From: a virus
Lineage: Duplodnaviria; Heunggongvirae; Uroviricota; Caudoviricetes
DNA: 14,573 bases
Strand: one strand, 5' to 3'
IMG/VR virus record: IMGVR_UViG_2645727715_000004
The notes below the pieces were generated by a model. The model saw nothing but the letters and a program-made list of their open reading frames with translations. It was not told where the DNA came from and did not search any database. The first letter of the stretch is position 1; the number at the start of each line of letters is the position of its first letter. Below are positions 1 to 14,573 of this stretch, piece by piece. The position numbers and the translations under genes were made by a program.

Positions 1-320
1 ATATCCGGAGTAATCCATGCATCGTATAGACACGAAAACCGCGCAGAAGGATAAGTTCGGCGCGGGTAAGAACGGTTTTACCCGTGGTAACCCCCAGATC
101 GGCACGCCTGCCACCGATCTGGATGATGACTACTTTGACATGTTGCAGGAGGAGCTTTGCAGCGTTGTGGAGGCGTCCGGTGCCAGCCTGGAGAAGGGGC
201 GGCACGACCAGCTACTTACCGCGCTTCGCGCGCTGCTGTTAAGCCGCAAGAATCCGTTTGGCGATATCAAATCGGATGGCACGGTGAAAACGGCTCTCGA
301 AAACCTTGGTTTGGGAGAAG
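1..320. repeat. Left arm of a 320-bp perfect inverted repeat; carries the RBS and first 101 codons of the tail-fibre gene; outer end coincides with the window edge
   Basis: Reverse complement of 2194..2513 checked base by base at both ends and over 1..114; ORF-track translations at 17..445(+) and 1697..2497(-) are identical for 101 aa. Identity ends at 320/2194. Confidence 0.95.
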
Positions 321-681
321 CGGCAAAACGGGATGTGGGTAACGGGCAAAACCAAATTCCTGATATGTCAGCGTGGGAGTGTGGGGGAGATACAACGACG
401 GGATGGAGGCGAAGCCGGATGGTTATATTGAACAATGGGGGCTAACTGGGGCCACAACAAATGAAGTTTTGATTAATTTTCCTATCCCATTTCCGACAGC
501 CGTCATTTCTATTAATGAACATGACCAGGCTCCTGTGGCAGGGAAAATGTCAGTATGGCAATTCTATAAATTGACTAACTCAAATGTCATAGCAGAGAAC
601 CTGGGATCTCTTGATAAAGGAAATCCATCCTTCAATGTTCCAACTGTCGCTGGTTGCCGCTGGTTTGCTACAGGAAGATAA
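17..681 (+). CDS. Alternative tail fibre protein (S'-like): shared 101-aa N-terminus plus a distinct C-terminal domain; reading frame interrupted by an apparent 1-nt deletion somewhere in 364..445
   Basis: ORF 17..445 shares its N-terminus with the minus-strand fibre; ORF 373..681 (frame open from 364) continues in the -1 frame with a plausible fibre-tip sequence; SD GGAG 7 nt upstream of the ATG at 17; stop TAA 679..681 immediately before the Tfa' start. Confidence 0.6.
294..319 (+). other. Candidate serine-invertase crossover site (hix/gix/cix-like), left copy
   Basis: CTCTCGAAAACC-TT-GGTTTGGGAGAA: 12-bp imperfect half-sites around a 2-bp core with the AAACC/GGTTT core of Hin/Gin/Cin/Pin sites (compare hixL TTCTTGAAAACCAAGGTTTTTGATAA, from memory). 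Lies at the inner boundary of the repeat. Confidence 0.55.
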
Positions 682-682
682 A

Positions 683-1123
683 ATGAGTAAATATCTTTAC
701 GATGCTAAAACTAATATGTTTTACCCATTTACTCTGGAAAGTCAGTATAAGGAGTCTGGGTTATGGCCTCATAATGGAGTTGAAGTTGATGAGGATATAT
801 TTATTAAGTACCTGTCCCCACCTCCAGGGAAGGTGAGAGTTGCGGGTGATGATGGCTATCCTGCATGGGATGACGTACCGCCGCTAACTCATGAAGAACA
901 ACTGTCAGAAGCGGAACGAAAAAAACAGACACTCATAAATCGAGTTAATGAATATATTAACAGTAAGCAGTGGCCAGGAAAGGCTGCTATTGGTCGTCTG
1001 AAAGGTGAGGAACTGGCGCAATATAATTCATGGCTTAATTATCTGGACGCACTGGAAATGGTTGATATTTCCAGTGCTCCAGATATTGAATGGCCTACGC
1101 CTCCGGCTGTTCAGGCCAGATGA
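683..1123 (+). CDS. Tail fibre assembly protein (Tfa/U'-like chaperone) for the alternative fibre
   Basis: ATG at 683, two nt after the fibre stop; N-terminus MSKYLYDAKTNMFYPF and C-terminal motif SAPDIEWP are typical of the enterobacterial phage Tfa family. The 611 start of the ORF track overlaps the fibre frame and is rejected. Confidence 0.75.
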   Translation: MSKYLYDAKTNMFYPFTLESQYKESGLWPHNGVEVDEDIFIKYLSPPPGKVRVAGDDGYPAWDDVPPLTHEEQLSEAERKKQTLINRVNEYINSKQWPGKAAIGRLKGEELAQYNSWLNYLDALEMVDISSAPDIEWPTPPAVQAR

Positions 1124-1697
1124 TATCCGGCGCGGTGCTGGTATCTGTTGCCGTCACCGCGTCAATGTAATCCAGCACGGCGTTAAGTCGGGTTGTTTCT
1201 GCCTGCGTCAGCTTCCGCCCGGCCTGCAATTTCAGTTGAATCAGACTGATGGAAGCCATTGCAGCATCAATCAGCGACTGGCGCTGTGCTTCTGCCGCTT
1301 CTACTGCGGCGCTATGCTGTGCCTCGGTATCCGTCACCCATTTCTCACCATCCCATTTATCGTATGGCGTTAACGGGGCGATAGTGGTTGTATTTTCAGG
1401 ATAATCACCCGGAGCTGTGATTTCTTTCGATTCTCCTGTTTCGGTGCTATAGATGATTTCACCGCGATGGTCTGGCACATATTCCCATGAGTTAAAATCT
1501 GCAGAACGGCAGATTGCATAACCAGCTTTATGTGTAACTGGTGCATCTAAACAAGAACATGCCGGGATACCGACGCCAACCGCAAGATATTCAGTTGATG
1601 TGGAAATATATTCCCGCGTTTCACCATCATAATTATAAATGGTAATGACTCCCGCTTTTATGGCAATGAGTTCGTTATTTAATACGGCTTTATTCAT
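1095..1697 (-). CDS. Tail fibre assembly protein (Tfa/U-like chaperone)
   Basis: 200-aa ORF directly downstream of the fibre gene; C-terminal motif DTSTAPDIIWPEQP resembles the conserved Tfa C-terminus of E. coli prophage TfaE/TfaR-type proteins (from memory). Confidence 0.8.
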   Translation of the reverse strand: MNKAVLNNELIAIKAGVITIYNYDGETREYISTSTEYLAVGVGIPACSCLDAPVTHKAGYAICRSADFNSWEYVPDHRGEIIYSTETGESKEITAPGDYPENTTTIAPLTPYDKWDGEKWVTDTEAQHSAAVEAAEAQRQSLIDAAMASISLIQLKLQAGRKLTQAETTRLNAVLDYIDAVTATDTSTAPDIIWPEQPEA

Positions 1698-2497
1698 CAG
1701 GCAGCCCTCACGATATAATTAAAGGCAATGTTACGAGGACGGTTTTCGTTTGCAGTTGGAACAATTCTTGAAGCATCAAGGCCAATCACTTTTGGGTAAA
1801 CAGCGCCATCTGTTCTTTCTGTCACCATACTTCTGATTAAGGAGAAATAACTATTGTTCGTTGAGGGGTTCAAAGGCACTACTGCCCCCTTAAACGAGCC
1901 TACTGATTCCCATATTGAATAATTTTCGGTGTTTACAGTCTTGAACTCACCATAGATATTACGTATGGCATCGCCCTGAGCGGATAATATTGCCCTCCCC
2001 GTATCCATACCACGTCCGTCATCCCAGCCACGAATAAACTCACCACGTAAATCAGGCAATTTATTTGTCGGGTAAGCCTTTGCCAGCTCCGGGTATTCTT
2101 CAGCAGAAAAAGCTGCTCCGTTGCATTTCAGCCAGCCTGTTGGCGGAGTGGCTGAAGGCCACGGAACAGGCACCCCAACAGGTAATGCAGAGCCTTCTCC
2201 CAAACCAAGGTTTTCGAGAGCCGTTTTCACCGTGCCATCCGATTTGATATCGCCAAACGGATTCTTGCGGCTTAACAGCAGCGCGCGAAGCGCGGTAAGT
2301 AGCTGGTCGTGCCGCCCCTTCTCCAGGCTGGCACCGGACGCCTCCACAACGCTGCAAAGCTCCTCCTGCAACATGTCAAAGTAGTCATCATCCAGATCGG
2401 TGGCAGGCGTGCCGATCTGGGGGTTACCACGGGTAAAACCGTTCTTACCCGCGCCGAACTTATCCTTCTGCGCGGTTTTCGTGTCTATACGATGCAT
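1697..2497 (-). CDS. Tail fibre protein (S-like), currently operon-linked orientation
   Basis: 266-aa ORF; constant N-terminus of 101 aa inside the repeat, then a [22 protein letters not shown] collar-like segment and C-terminal tip; start overlaps the gp48-like stop. Confidence 0.85.
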
Positions 2498-2513
2498 GGA
2501 TTACTCCGGATAT
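2194..2513. repeat. Right arm of the 320-bp inverted repeat; the operon-proximal tail-fibre 5' end plus the last 16 nt of the upstream gp48-like gene
   Basis: Exact reverse complement of 1..320; at 2514 it continues into gp48-like coding sequence that is unique in the window. Confidence 0.95.
2195..2220 (-). other. Candidate serine-invertase crossover site, right copy in inverted orientation
   Basis: Reverse complement of 2195..2220 is identical to 294..319. Confidence 0.55.
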
Positions 2514-3085
2514 TTAAAAATTACGTAGGTATGCGACGGGCAGAGTTTGTTAAGCACACATTCGACAACTGTGTCGCCCCAGATACGCAGTGCGGAATCA
2601 CAGGGATCGCCACATGTCATCCAGGTGGTGTTGGTGGCGGCTGGCATGTTGACCTGCCAGTAATACCGCCATTCAGGCGCGTTCACAGCGTCAGTACAGG
2701 CCGATGAGCAGGTGAACGTGCTTTTGTCGTATCGCGTGATGGTGGCATCTGGTCTGCCCAGGGCAGCAAGCTGTGCAAGATAAAAATCCTCGTTGATGCC
2801 GCCCGCCAGGTTAACCTTCGCATCCAGCCGTTGCTGACGCTGGCGAAGGGTCTGTGTCCCTGCGGGAATACATTCATCCGGCAGACCGCACAGACGCTCC
2901 CAGCGGTTTATCAGTTCAGTGGTGGTGCGCGGATCCAGCTCCCGCATCAGGGCATCCGCACGCTGATGAACGCGGGTTAATGACGGTGCCGCACCGGCAA
3001 TCGCCGGATCGCTGGCTGACCACGCCGGACCGGGGGGCAACAGTGCCGACAACAGACGGATGTAATCATCGTTTGTCACGTCCAT
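2501..3085 (-). CDS. Baseplate/tail protein, Mu gp48-like (P2 gpI-like family)
   Basis: 194-aa ORF in the conserved position between the J-like baseplate gene and the fibre; start overlaps the upstream gene's stop. Confidence 0.65.
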
Positions 3086-4134
3086 GAAATCGTCCCCAGT
3101 ACCGCCAGTTCATTTTTTGCAATGGAGATATTGTCTGCCGGTGCAAGCAACTGATGGCTGTATTCCCCGTTCGCACCGGAAATCGCCTCACTGATACGCG
3201 ATACCTTCAGTTCTCCCTGCGGATAACCATCACGCAGCAGGAACGAACGCAACTCCGCGGTGATGGCAGCCCGTATTTCCGGTGTGTCTGGCGTTACGCG
3301 GATATGAAAATCCACCGTATGCGCCACCGGCCTGAACACATACAAATCAGAGCCTGCCACCGGGGCCAGTGGCTCAATGTGTTGTCTTGCCGCCGTTTCC
3401 GTTGATTCTTCCGGAATGGGATTAATCAGGTCACTGCTGGCAATCATCACACCGACAGTTCCCGTTCCCATCCAGTGACGGTATGTCCATGCGCGGGTAA
3501 TGCCGGGCACTTCTTTAGCCCAGACGACATAGTCCCCGTCAGCCCCGCCCTGAGGCGTCCAGTAATACCGCTCAATGACGCGGGCGCGCCACGTTTCCAG
3601 ATCTTCAGTATCGAATCCGCCAGTCAGGGTATCTGCAACACCGGAAGACGGCAGACCATTCACCGGCGTGACCAGGATTAATGCCGTACCGTCGTCAGCG
3701 TTACCGACCGCGCCTGCACTTGAGCAAGTGATCGGCACGCGCAGGACACCACCGGAGCTGGTTGCATCAGCAGTTGCCGTGTATTGAACCAGGTCAGCGC
3801 GCTGAATCACGCTCCCGGCGGTCACCTTCAGGCCATCGCTGACACCTTCCCAGCGCATATACCCGCTGGCAGCCGTGGCCCCCTTGCGCGGACACCGTTT
3901 CATCGCAGCATGTCGCGCCAGCCAGGACGCATCGCACAGGTCAGGCAGCATGTTCATTGCCAGATAATCGATGTACCCGTAAACCGTATGCAGCGCCGCC
4001 GCATACACCTTTGCCCGCACGTCTTCATCCATGCGCCGGAGCGTGTCGCTGACGTCCAGCCTGGCGAATAAATCGTTACGGAGCATACTGATATTTTCTG
4101 CCAGCGTCGGGCGCTGAAATTCACTGTCCGCCAT
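3076..4134 (-). CDS. Baseplate J-like protein (Mu gp47-like)
   Basis: 352-aa ORF; size and position match the baseplate wedge J family in Mu-like tail modules. Confidence 0.75.
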
Positions 4135-4550
4135 GCGTTATCGCACTCCACAGATCATCAAAAGAAATCATTACCGGTCCGTCACGACGCCAGAGGGTGA
4201 TACTGTTACCCAGCTCATTAATCCCGGTGCGGCGGATATCCAGATCAATACGGGACACCACGCCGTCATCAGTCATCCATTGGAGGCATTCGCGGATATA
4301 CCCCCTTACTGTCTGCACCAGCTGATTGGTCAGTTTGCTGCGCTGAAGCAGCCACAGTCGGGAGCCGTAACGGTCATTCTGTCACCGCAGGCCAGGTATC
4401 CCCCCACCATCCCATCGGGACGTCGGCGTTGTCATCAGGCTCCGCCCGCCGCCAGGTAAACAGGGAAATCACCACGGCGCGGGTCAGCGGATCCAGCGGT
4501 GCGCTGGCGCAGGTGCGTTTACCGTTCACCGTCAGCCACAGTTCCATCAT
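4121..4550 (-). CDS. Baseplate protein, Mu gp46-like (gp25/GPW-like), interrupted by a frameshift near 4374..4382
   Basis: ATG at 4550 opens a 58-codon frame ending TGA at about 4376; the +1 frame continues (QNDRYGSRLWLLQRSKLTNQLVQTVRGY...) to the stop at 4121. Combined length about 143 aa matches the family. Confidence 0.55.
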
Positions 4551-7559: not shown

Positions 7560-9393
7560 TTACCTGCCAAAGCGCGTATAGCCAACATCATGGCTGACAT
7601 CAAAACCGCTGGATCGCGTTTCCATAACCCGCATACCCGGAGGCGAATTCACAAAAGAGACCTTGATCTCACCATCAACTTTTGGCGCAGAAGCTTTGTT
7701 AATCATGAAGGGATTCGGGCCTGTGGCATCGGAGGCGTTGTTTGATTGAGCCGGATCTACCGCCGGATAAGGTGTGTATCCCCGCGCCGGTATTCCCGTC
7801 CCATAAGCATCATAAGCACCCGCGCCCCACTGCGCAGAGTTAATGGCATCGACCGTGTCACCGGAACTGTCGGTAAACCACTCAATAATTGGCTTCAGCT
7901 TGTCCCACATATCCTGAAACCACTTAACAACCGGTCCCCAGTTATTGATCACTATCCCCAGCGGCGACCAGGCAAAAACCTTCTTAAGAAGTTCCCAGCC
8001 AGCCTCAAAATAAGGACCAATGGTTTCCCAGAGTTTCTTAAAATAAGGTCCGACAACATCCCAGTTAGTGATAATTAATCCCGCAGCCAGGCTATCGCCG
8101 TCGCAATCATGCCAATCGGCGTCATCGACATAATCCTGCTGACAATACTGATGGCACCGCCAACGCCCATCAATCCCAGTTTCAGAATCGCAAGACCGGC
8201 AGCAAGCCCGACGACGCCGCGAATAACCCGGGGATTTTCATCCGCAAACTTCGTGAATTTTTCCCCTAACTCCCCCAGCCATTGCGTGATATTTTTGGCG
8301 TCACCAGAAAATGCGCCGCCAATAGCCGCAAGGCCGTTAGTTGCGGTCCCCGTCATTGCCTCCCACAGGTTGGACAGCGTTCCAAGCTGGGCCTGAACAC
8401 GTTTATTCAGGCTGGCCTGTTTATTCATCTTCTGCTGGATCTGATCGTAGCCATCCTTTCCTTTATCGATTAGTGCATTGACCACCTGAAGGGTTTCGGC
8501 ATCATCACCAAATATTGCCTTAAGTACACCTGTTCGCTTAACGTCTGTCAGTTTTCGCAGCTTTGCCAGTTGCTTAAACATGTTATCAAGACCGCCAAAA
8601 CTCCCTTTGCCGTCAGTAAAATCGAGCTGCACTCCGAGTTTCTGGCGGGCCATGACTTTATTGACGTCCCTGATTTTCTTAACGCTTAATCCGGACTGGA
8701 TAACTTTTCGCAGGGCATTACCTGCCGACTCCCCGTTCATCCCCATCTGATCCATCATGACGCTGATAGGGGCAAGGCTCTGTGCAGCCTGAAGTCCGTC
8801 CTTATTCACCATCTTCAGAACAGAACTGGTTTTAGTGAAGAAGGACAACATGTTGGTATCGTCAACGCCCAGATAAAACGCCTTCTGGATAGTGTCGAAC
8901 AGCCCCATCATGTCTTCTGACGCCGTTCCGGTAGCATCCTGCATCTTTGCAGCAAACTCAGCAGCCGCTTCCGGTGTTTTTTTCAGTTGTACCGCAAGAT
9001 AAGCTGTCGCTTTACCCACACCACCAAGAATGTTTTCTGCCGGGATCCCTGACGCACCAGCATCTGCATCATGTTCTGGAAATCAGCCGTTGTACCGGGT
9101 AGCTGGTTACCCAGGCCAATAGCCAGTTTATTGATGTCCTGAAAGCTCTTTCCAACCTCGCCGTTCGCATCCATCATAGCGACTTTCAGCCCGGTGGCGG
9201 CGTTTTCCTGATCAGCATAAGATTTCAGGGAAAGCGTCAGACCCGCTGCCAGTCCGCCACCAAGCGCCAGCCCACCCTGTGACGCTTCTTCCGCCTGGCG
9301 TTTAAATCCCCGGATTTTCTTTTGCATTTTCGACAGCGCGGGAGAAAGCCTGTCGACACCGGTGATCAACGCCTTAAGCTCAAATTCAGCCAT
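7560..9393 (-). CDS. Tail tape measure protein, interrupted by two apparent 1-nt deletions (about 9042..9054 and 8071..8080)
   Basis: Three consecutive minus-strand ORFs (8983..9393, 8075..9019, 7560..7952) form one roughly 612-codon reading frame if one base is restored at each junction (VRQG|IPAENILGG and WLRD|LIITNW). Shows the hydrophobic segment and W-rich C-terminal repeats typical of tape measure proteins. Confidence 0.7.
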
Positions 9394-13838: not shown

Positions 13839-14573
13839 TTACGCCGCTGCAATCTTCAGCAGTTTGATGGCCTGCGAATCGACCAGCATCCCGCCGGTGC
13901 GCTTGGTGGTATAAAAACCGACAAACGGTTTATTGGTGTACGGGTCACGCAGAATGCGGGTGCCGATACGGTCAACGATGGTGTAACCCCGTTTGAAGTT
14001 ACCAAATGCAATGGCTTTCGCATCAGCGGCGATATCCGGCATCTGTTCGTTTTCAGCGATACCGTAACCCGCCAGAGAGGACGGCTGCCCCAGTTCCAGC
14101 CCCGGACGCCACAGATAGTTACCCTCGGTGTCTTTCAGCAGACGGATGGCAAACAGGCTGTTGTTGTTCATCATGAACTTCGCGCCAGTGCGGTGTGCCT
14201 TACGCAGCGTGTAAATCAGTTTGATAATGGCGTCTGCGGTCACCGCGGTCGCTTCGCCGGATACAATATGCTGAAGTTTGCCGAACGCCCGGACCTTATC
14301 GGTTTCATCAGTAGATTCATACGCCAGGAACCCTTTTGGCTTCTTGGTACCATCGCCGGTGGTAAAGGCAATTTCTTCCTGTTCGGCAAATTCGGTCGCC
14401 AGCTCGCTGTTGATCCAGGCCTCCACGTTGAAGAAGGCATCGTCCAGCATTTTCTGGGTAGCCTGCGGGTTGCCGTAGATTTCCCCCATGAGAGGTTCAA
14501 TCAGCTCCAGTCTGGAGGTGGCAGTCTGGGATCGCGTATCCGTTACCCCCACCCATCCGGAAGCCGTACCGCC
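13839..14573 (-). CDS. Major capsid protein, HK97 family (5'-truncated; continues beyond the right edge)
   Basis: C-terminal region shows the GNFKRGYTIVDR and RILRDPYT type motifs of HK97-fold capsid proteins; the frame stays open upstream of the listed M to base 14573. Confidence 0.85.
   Translation of the reverse strand, partial: GGTASGWVGVTDTRSQTATSRLELIEPLMGEIYGNPQATQKMLDDAFFNVEAWINSELATEFAEQEEIAFTTGDGTKKPKGFLAYESTDETDKVRAFGKLQHIVSGEATAVTADAIIKLIYTLRKAHRTGAKFMMNNNSLFAIRLLKDTEGNYLWRPGLELGQPSSLAGYGIAENEQMPDIAADAKAIAFGNFKRGYTIVDRIGTRILRDPYTNKPFVGFYTTKRTGGMLVDSQAIKLLKIAAA

Follow-up and report, generated by a model that had tools for sequence, protein, structure and literature searches.

In the invertible G segment of phage Mu and the C segment of P1, the constant fibre part (Sc) lies outside the segment, the cassettes Sv-U and Sv'-U' lie inside it in opposed orientations, and a serine invertase (Gin and Cin, respectively) adjoins. 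Invertases of the Hin/Gin/Cin/Pin type use two inverted sites of about 26 bp, each with 12-bp half-sites around a 2-bp core and sharing a general half-site consensus; the P1 annotation and the e14 repeat are in line with the use of this consensus here. In P1, the cix crossovers lie 11 nt from the outer ends of 636-nt repeats, which are found inside the crossover sites and form part of the variable region. The P segment of the e14 prophage in Escherichia coli K-12 is 1,797 bp in size and has the gene order ymfQ-stfP-tfaP-tfaE-stfE-pinE. Its repeat has been published as TTGGTTTGGGAGAAG(G), and it is inverted by PinE, PinQ, and PinR, enzymes able to act in trans (PMC12529663). Clonal K-12 cultures carry e14 in both orientations side by side (PMC4272514).

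The window analyzed here, 14,573 bp in length, is the whole of contig LEKZ01000190.1 from the draft genome of E. coli D92/09, which was sequenced on an Ion Torrent PGM with a 400-bp library at 16.5x coverage and assembled into 343 contigs (PMC4588619); the assembler is named merely as "Assembler plugin." It contains a single inverted repeat with arms at 1–320 and 2194–2513, and the sequence-only reading had taken these arms as the basis of a host-range switch of the Mu G and P1 C type. The arms are indeed 320 nt long, 100% complementary, and separated by 1,873 nt, and a codon comparison bore out that each has one ATG (at 17 and 2497) followed by the same 101 codons. The switch logic proposed from the sequence is right and already known, being that of an invertible Pin/e14-type tail-fibre segment carried by an E. 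coli prophage. The long repeat is another matter, and we consider it very probable that the locus is an e14-type segment to which reads from a mixture of orientations added the apparent 320-nt arms.

The DNA between the arms holds four genes, comprising two fibre C-termini and two Caudo_TAP chaperones. On the minus strand, the gene for a YmfQ/Mu gp48-like baseplate protein (2501–3085; PF10076 Phage_Mu_Gp48, E 9.4e-27; annotated ymfQ in relatives) is the operon's final gene ahead of the fibre, and its terminal 13 nt are inside the right arm. The fibre gene that follows (1697–2497, minus strand, 266 aa; PF07484 Collar, E 1.6e-15) is the one expressed in the assembled orientation, and consists of Sc (codons 1–101, 2194–2497) and of Sv with the Collar domain (1697–2193). 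Its chaperone, a TfaE-like Tfa of 200 aa, is encoded at 1095–1697 on the same strand (PF02413 Caudo_TAP, E 1.4e-33) and annotated tfaE in relatives. The alternative C-terminus Sv', with a Gp53-like_C domain (321–681), and its 146-aa chaperone Tfa' (683–1123; PF02413, E 3.7e-34) are on the plus strand, so that Tfa and Tfa' are convergent and their 3' ends overlap by 29 nt. That the two C-termini are unrelated and that each has its own chaperone, as read from the sequence, agrees with a BLASTP E value of 0.26 for Sv against Sv' and with the two Caudo_TAP profile matches; the relatedness of Tfa and Tfa' is confined to the C-terminal 72 aa, at 35% identity. A constant N-terminus outside and two opposed cassettes inside follow the logic of Mu G and P1 C, but the fibre is short by comparison with those systems, its Sc being only 101 aa, and its domains are Collar and Gp53-like.

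The real recombination sites are 26-bp sites of the Hin/Gin/Cin/Pin type, not the 320-nt arms. They are in inverted orientation at 294–319 (plus strand) and 2195–2220 (minus strand), at the inner ends of the arms, and are reverse complements of each other. The site at 294–319 reads CTCTCGAAAACC-TT-GGTTTGGGAGAA, with a Sc-type outer half-site, a TT core at 306–307, and an inner half-site of 12 bp; the core of the right-hand site is at 2207–2208. Both sites carry the e14 P-segment repeat TTGGTTTGGGAGAAGG, and the published form of that repeat is contained in the site at 294–319 (PMC12529663). The sites are of the same type as those of Mu G and P1 C, and resemble the annotated P1 cixL, CCTAAACCTTGGTTTAAGAGAA. 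The window shares with the e14 P segment this repeat, the ymfQ-Sc context upstream, the Sv/TfaE-type (stfE/tfaE) cassette, and the order and orientation of the genes; it is also similar in segment size, about 1.87 kb as against 1,797 bp. The differences are a second cassette Sv'/Tfa' that differs from the K-12 stfP/tfaP, and the sequence just inside the site, CGGCAAAACGGG in the window and GAGCAAAACTCA in K-12. Furthermore, e14 is a decayed remnant, whereas in the window the tail and baseplate module is complete, though pinE is not on the contig.

The same prophage is present in complete E. coli genomes, which match the window over 301–4200 at 94–97% identity and contain the two cassettes with identical junction sequences. 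Four of these genomes (PEC422, W12-1, EC6622, and A32) are in one orientation and seven, including A22, FDAARGOS_1250, and MIN10, in the other. The gene order is ymfQ-Sc-Sv-Tfa/Tfa'-Sv'-pinE in A32 and ymfQ-Sc-Sv'-Tfa'/Tfa-Sv-pinE in A22, giving the junctions Sc/Sv and pin/Sv' in the former and Sc/Sv' and pin/Sv in the latter. Between these two near-isogenic strains, the central 1,884 nt are cleanly inverted, with flanks that are 100% and 99.96% identical and with alignments that share a 20-nt overlap at either end of the inverted part, placing the breakpoints within the sites. The inversion of the segment is therefore real, and the swapping of C-terminus and chaperone suggested from the window, for which a look at related genomes for both orientations had been proposed as a check, is seen directly in A32 and A22.

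No invertase was found among the ORFs of the contig, which stops 293 nt beyond the left site. In the relatives, pinE starts about 60 nt from the crossover site (PEC422 and A32), and its product combines a Resolvase with an HTH_7 domain and hits, at E 9e-95, the PDB chain 3UJ3, which is named DNA-invertase. Switches of this class have a Fis-dependent recombinational enhancer in the 5' part of the invertase gene, which here would lie outside the window. Over its initial ~150 nt, pinE gives a gap-free alignment to P1 cin in which most columns are identical and which spans the region annotated there as the enhancer; judged by this alignment, the 5' end of pinE is homologous to that region.

The relatives also show what normally lies to the left of the segment. 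The alignments of PEC422 and A32 to the window begin only at about 301, with pinE occupying the DNA further left, and in all comparable complete genomes the sequence outside the left site is pinE and not a second copy of Sc. In the contig, that place (1–293, plus strand) is taken by Sc codons 1–92, preceded by 16 nt that contain the stop codon of ymfQ, as a 100% reverse complement of 2221–2513. The inverted repeat in PEC422 and A32 is only 20 nt, and at 56 further loci with a partner site the perfect repeats are 14–20 nt long and 1.5–1.96 kb apart. When window positions 1–4200 were searched for in 5,426 complete E. coli genomes, no genome matched them as one piece, the best four matches starting at 301, and a second copy of the Sc-type 22-mer was seen at none of the 131 other loci holding it. 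The sequence-only reading of a switch built on 320-bp repeats, with each arm a self-contained gene start complete with RBS and the end of the upstream gene, is not supported by these comparisons: the sites are only 26 bp, the repeat is 20 nt in the relatives and 14–20 nt at the further loci, and the left side in the relatives is pinE.

The left arm begins at base 1 of the contig, so the figure of 320 nt was set by the contig end and not by biology. The two junctions of the window are Sc/Sv at the right (2195–2220), which we take as genuine, and Sc/Sv' at the left (294–319), both with the Sc-type half-site CTCTCGAAAACC, whereas the pin-type half-site TTTTCATAAACG and any pin junction are absent from the contig. 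The left junction matches at every base what Pin would produce by recombining the Sc site with the pin-proximal one, and the 293 additional nucleotides of that arm make up exactly the Sc/Sv' junction expected of the flipped state. One junction of each orientation and no pin junction fit a chimeric assembly of a mixed-orientation culture. Two whole contigs of other assemblies stop exactly at the crossover site, which marks it as a recurrent assembly breakpoint; the D92/09 contig differs in having run on for 293 nt, into the constant region. Most likely, then, positions 1–293 are an overhang that the assembly drew from reads in the flipped orientation, and the perfect 320-nt repeat arose because both orientations were present in the assembled culture. 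The read length of a 400-bp library would accommodate 320 nt of overhang and an anchor in Sv'. The sequence-only reading had itself named an assembly artefact as what would count against it, and the repeat is probably just that, because the 26-bp sites are at the inner ends, relatives have pinE and short repeats, and the overhang at the contig end equals the Sc/Sv' junction.

Some observations pull the other way. The two arms of the deposited contig are 100% identical although contig ends covered by few Ion Torrent reads often carry indels, and a true repeat longer than the reads would also halt a contig inside it. Long inverted repeats are moreover known from tail-fibre inversion, those of P1 being 636 nt at 98% identity, and one could suppose that in D92/09 Sc, its RBS, and the end of ymfQ were duplicated in inverted orientation beyond the segment, replacing pinE and creating self-contained gene starts. 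We regard this as highly improbable: besides the left arm stopping at the contig end and the layout missing from 5,426 complete genomes and 131 other site-bearing loci, the exact Pin product at the left would have to stand beside the original junction on one molecule, which needs an intermolecular event that makes a large palindrome. The arms would also be outside the invertible DNA. This geometry is the opposite of that in P1, where the sites are at the outer ends and the ~0.6-kb repeats inside the invertible DNA, and rules out the window arms as an analogue of the P1 repeats. A genuine duplication of 320 nt or more, as a pin-less derivative with the fibre start (RBS, ATG, and 101 codons) at both ends, is if anything slightly less probable again; were it genuine, both fibres could be made simultaneously, or inversion could proceed by RecA-dependent homologous recombination of one arm with the other in place of a serine invertase.

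The left arm could alternatively come from a second prophage of the same genome that shares the conserved Sc module, its copy having been attached to the Sv' end by a repeat-induced mis-join. Sc-like sequence is present in 2,037 of the 5,426 complete genomes, in up to four places per genome, and the outer end of the arm (2513/2514) lies close to where ymfQ meets Sc, a place that could separate two modules. On the other hand, Sv-Tfa-Tfa'-Sv' is the native order of a single segment in A32, PEC422, and A22, and the arm shows no mismatch along its 320 nt, 16 of which belong to the ymfQ 3' end, whereas the copies in PEC422 and A32 differ from the window by ~3%. A mixture of orientations requires no further element, and the second prophage seems an improbable source, if a marginally better candidate than a real repeat.

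The cassette not joined to the operon is broken in the contig. The left-hand fibre ORF (17–445) ends after 142 aa, and the Gp53-like domain is in another frame (373–681). In comparison with all five relatives that have the Sv' cassette, the contig lacks one nucleotide of the C run at 415–416 (CC instead of CCC), and this puts Sv' out of frame with Sc; the intact Sc-Sv' protein of strain A22 is 221 aa long and matches PF21882 at E 1.1e-11. Sv' is in frame in the complete-genome relatives and frameshifted in this contig only. Altogether, the contig has three frameshifting indels (within 400–430, 4375–4390, and 8080–8095), all private to it, and given Ion Torrent data at 16.5x, a sequencing error is probably the cause. 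A decayed Sv' cassette is correspondingly the less likely explanation.

Taken together, the locus is a tail-fibre segment of the invertible P-segment type in an SfV/e14-like myovirus prophage of D92/09. The minus-strand baseplate operon runs via ymfQ into Sc (2497 to 2194), and a Pin-family serine invertase, whose gene is just outside the segment in relatives and missing from the contig, would swap strands at the 2-bp cores of the sites at 294–319 and 2195–2220. The flipping of ~1.87 kb would then fuse Sc either with Sv (Collar), whose chaperone comes next, or with Sv' (Gp53-like) and the chaperone behind that. If the DNA preparation was a mixture of cells in both orientations, the assembler may have built ymfQ-Sc-Sv-Tfa-Tfa'-Sv' and then, guided by reads that came from flipped molecules, continued through the second site back into Sc, where a 293-nt overhang would have ended the contig and left an apparent 320-nt perfect inverted repeat.

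The locus is an ordinary one, as the switch is of a known type and the long repeat most likely made by assembly. Its practical use is as a caution: where a long, perfect inverted repeat reaches the end of a contig next to a known invertible segment, it should be taken for a mark of two orientations coexisting in the sequenced culture and not for the architecture of the switch. Here it suggests active inversion of the segment in the culture of D92/09. For the biology of these prophages, the finding adds nothing new beyond one more e14/Pin-type tail-fibre switch, of a kind annotated in thousands of E. coli genomes.

We identified a single inverted repeat in the window, with arms at 1–320 and 2194–2513 that are 320 nt long, 100% complementary and separated by a 1873-nt spacer. 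In both arms, the ORF map and translations place an ATG (+ strand, 17; − strand, 2497) ahead of 101 identical codons. The − strand start opens the gene for a 266-aa Collar-domain fibre (1697–2497; PF07484, E 1.6e-15), and the same strand encodes a 200-aa Caudo_TAP chaperone (1095–1697); on the + strand, the domain search found a Gp53-like_C fibre C-terminus (321–681) and a second Caudo_TAP chaperone of 146 aa (683–1123). The two fibre C-termini, Sv (Collar) and Sv' (Gp53-like), are mutually unrelated (BLASTP E 0.26), and the similarity between their chaperones, Tfa and Tfa', is confined to a C-terminal 72-aa stretch with 35% identity. The two chaperone genes converge and share 29 nt at their 3' ends (1095–1123), as is also the case for tfaP and tfaE in the e14 prophage of K-12 (L006, 5518–5546), so that both strands of almost the same stretch code for the C-terminal motif APDI-WP common to the two proteins. 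The sequence-only reading had thus described the repeat, the paired gene starts and the two fibre C-termini with their chaperones correctly, with the caveats that the left arm starts from base 1 and that the + strand fibre is not intact. There, 17..445 encodes just 142 aa before a stop, and the frame of the Gp53-like domain is that of 373..681, because one C is missing from the run at 415–416 in comparison with relatives.

The inner ends of the arms hold a 26-bp crossover site, CTCTCGAAAACC-TT-GGTTTGGGAGAA, at 294–319 and in mirror copy at 2195–2220, consisting of two 12-bp half-sites flanking a 2-bp core. The site resembles the annotated P1 cixL, CCTAAACC-TT-GGTTTAAGAGAA, and the repeat published for the 1,797-bp e14 P segment, TTGGTTTGGGAGAAGG (PMC12529663), is found at this place in both arms. 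With megablast, positions 1–4200 as a whole had no match in any of 5,426 complete E. coli genomes; the best four matches, PEC422, W12-1, EC6622 and A32, covered 301–4200 at ~96% identity. In the window's orientation, these four have the gene order pinE, gp53-like domain protein, two tail fibre assembly proteins and phage tail protein, followed by YmfQ, baseplate J, GP46 and further baseplate genes, a layout shared with ymfQ-stfP-tfaP-tfaE-stfE-pinE of K-12 e14. In the alignments, the relatives match the left side of the window from within AAAC(C/G)TTGGTTTGGGAGAAG onward, and to the left of this motif they carry the pinE upstream region rather than the constant fibre N-terminal part (Sc). No inverted repeat other than one of 20 nt flanks the segment in these complete genomes. 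The pinE product is annotated there as a site-specific DNA recombinase of 184 aa; it has Resolvase and HTH_7 domains and is matched at E 9e-95 by a chain of PDB entry 3UJ3 that bears the name DNA-invertase, and the 5' end of the gene aligns with P1 cin over the annotated inversion enhancer.

The complete genomes A32 and A22 are near-isogenic, with flanks of 100% and 99.96% identity, and differ by an inverted central segment of 1,884 nt whose alignments overlap by 20 nt at either end. This difference is a clean site-specific inversion. In A32 and PEC422, the Sc-type outer half-site CTCTCGAAAACC is joined to Sv and the pin-type TTTTCATAAACG to Sv', while in A22 the Sc-type is joined to Sv' and the pin-type to Sv. 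The Sc-Sv' state was found in seven complete genomes, and four others with these cassettes are in the Sc-Sv state; A22 contains the intact Sc-Sv' product of 221 aa. With this inversion, the crossover sites and both states present in complete genomes, the interpretation of the locus as an inversion switch was correct. A32 and A22 (4,727,511 and 4,727,126 bp) come from Australian marsupial E. coli and were deposited with the segment oppositely oriented.

The same reading had built the switch on the 320-bp repeat with its start codon and RBS, but the relatives carry a 20-nt repeat and pinE, and the long repeat very probably arose as an artefact of assembly where a contig ends. An exact look-up of the 142-aa product led to one contig only, LEKZ01000190.1 (GCA_001038025.1), whose 14,573 nt the window covers completely, so base 1, where the left arm begins, is the contig end. 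Its right junction joins the Sc-type half-site to Sv and its left junction the Sc-type half-site to Sv'; after extracting all junctions, we found no pin-type half-site anywhere in the window. Each orientation state thus contributes one junction to the contig, which then ends. The genome to which the contig belongs, that of E. coli D92/09, was sequenced on Ion Torrent PGM with a 400-bp library at 16.5x coverage and assembled into 343 contigs by the Torrent 'Assembler plugin' (PMC4588619). Both e14 orientations coexist in clonal K-12 cultures (PMC4272514). On the simplest reading, the D92/09 culture likewise held both, and the assembler would have run from the operon via Sc, Sv, Tfa, Tfa' and Sv', after which reads of flipped molecules would have led it across the second site back into Sc; reads of a 400-bp library would be roughly long enough for a 320-nt overhang together with its anchor in Sv'. 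In the window, the sites are at the inner ends, which places the arms themselves beyond the invertible DNA, the geometry expected if the constant region was appended twice. P1 also has long repeats (636 nt, 98% identity), but the crossovers annotated there lie at a distance of 11 nt from the outer repeat ends, and the repeats therefore belong to the invertible DNA.

Comparative loci agree with an assembly of mixed orientations: none of the 131 other loci with the Sc-type 22-mer (11 from species-representative genomes and 120 from IMG/VR) has a second copy of it, and in the 56 where the site has an inverted partner, the perfect repeats span just 14–20 nt at a spacing of 1.5–1.96 kb. A mis-join via a second Sc-bearing prophage is an improbable source of the arm. 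A real duplication is slightly less probable still; it would need a Pin recombinant junction and the parental junction together on one molecule, which implies an intermolecular event generating a palindrome. Two IMG/VR contigs, L026 (11347–11368 of 11368) and L098 (1–22 of 7957), stop exactly at the crossover site, and several, L057 and L033 among them, end at it or within a few tens of bases, making the invertible segment a recurrent breakpoint of short-read assemblies. The enterobacterial Sc-type site, exact over its 22 nt, is also present in Lonsdalea and Morganella genomes and in a 5,794-nt contig binned as 'MAG: Bacillota bacterium' (L018, JAEWTL010000032.1), which looks like a mis-binned enterobacterial prophage contig.

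Three frameshifting indels in comparison with PEC422 are all private to LEKZ01000190.1 among the fetched loci. After 414 in Sv', the window has CC (415–416) and relatives CCC (window state in 0/5 relatives); at 4383 in the GP46 gene, the window has an extra C (0/68); and at 8089 in the tape measure gene, it has GG for GGG (0/22). These are probably Ion Torrent errors at 16.5x rather than prophage decay, and the "dead" alternative fibre Sv' is thus not to be accepted at face value. The remaining ORFs of the window are all structural, with no recombinase among the ORFs of the contig. Their products include Mu gp44-, gp45-, gp46- and gp47-like baseplate proteins, YmfQ, a DNA circularization protein, assembly chaperone and tape measure fragments, tail tube, sheath and terminator, a head completion protein, a head-tail connector and the C-terminal part of the capsid (13839–14573; Phage_capsid, profile positions 55–280 only). 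The right contig end cuts through the major capsid gene, so the contig is one piece of a larger SfV/e14-like myovirus prophage, its head genes having been cut off.

Homology and natural variants show that the − strand carries the fibre operon, in which the baseplate genes and then ymfQ lead into Sc, and that inversion between the 26-bp sites fuses Sc in frame either to Sv, followed by the TfaE-like chaperone, or to Sv', followed by its own chaperone. By analogy with the family, PinE or a trans-acting Pin would catalyse the reaction, with strand exchange at the TT core. As a member of the e14 P, Mu G and P1 C family, the switch is a system that has long been known. The same Sc-Sv' cassette is found in a heavily deleted remnant in the complete genome FDAARGOS_1250 (L005, NZ_CP069571.1 1–6530), where a partial DNA-circularization gene is fused beside a partial ymfQ and a HipA-family kinase and an S24 peptidase adjoin; the fibre switch thus persists in decayed prophages, as in e14. 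The A32/A22 pair provides a natural demonstration of the switch, whose two fibres would give different receptor specificities.
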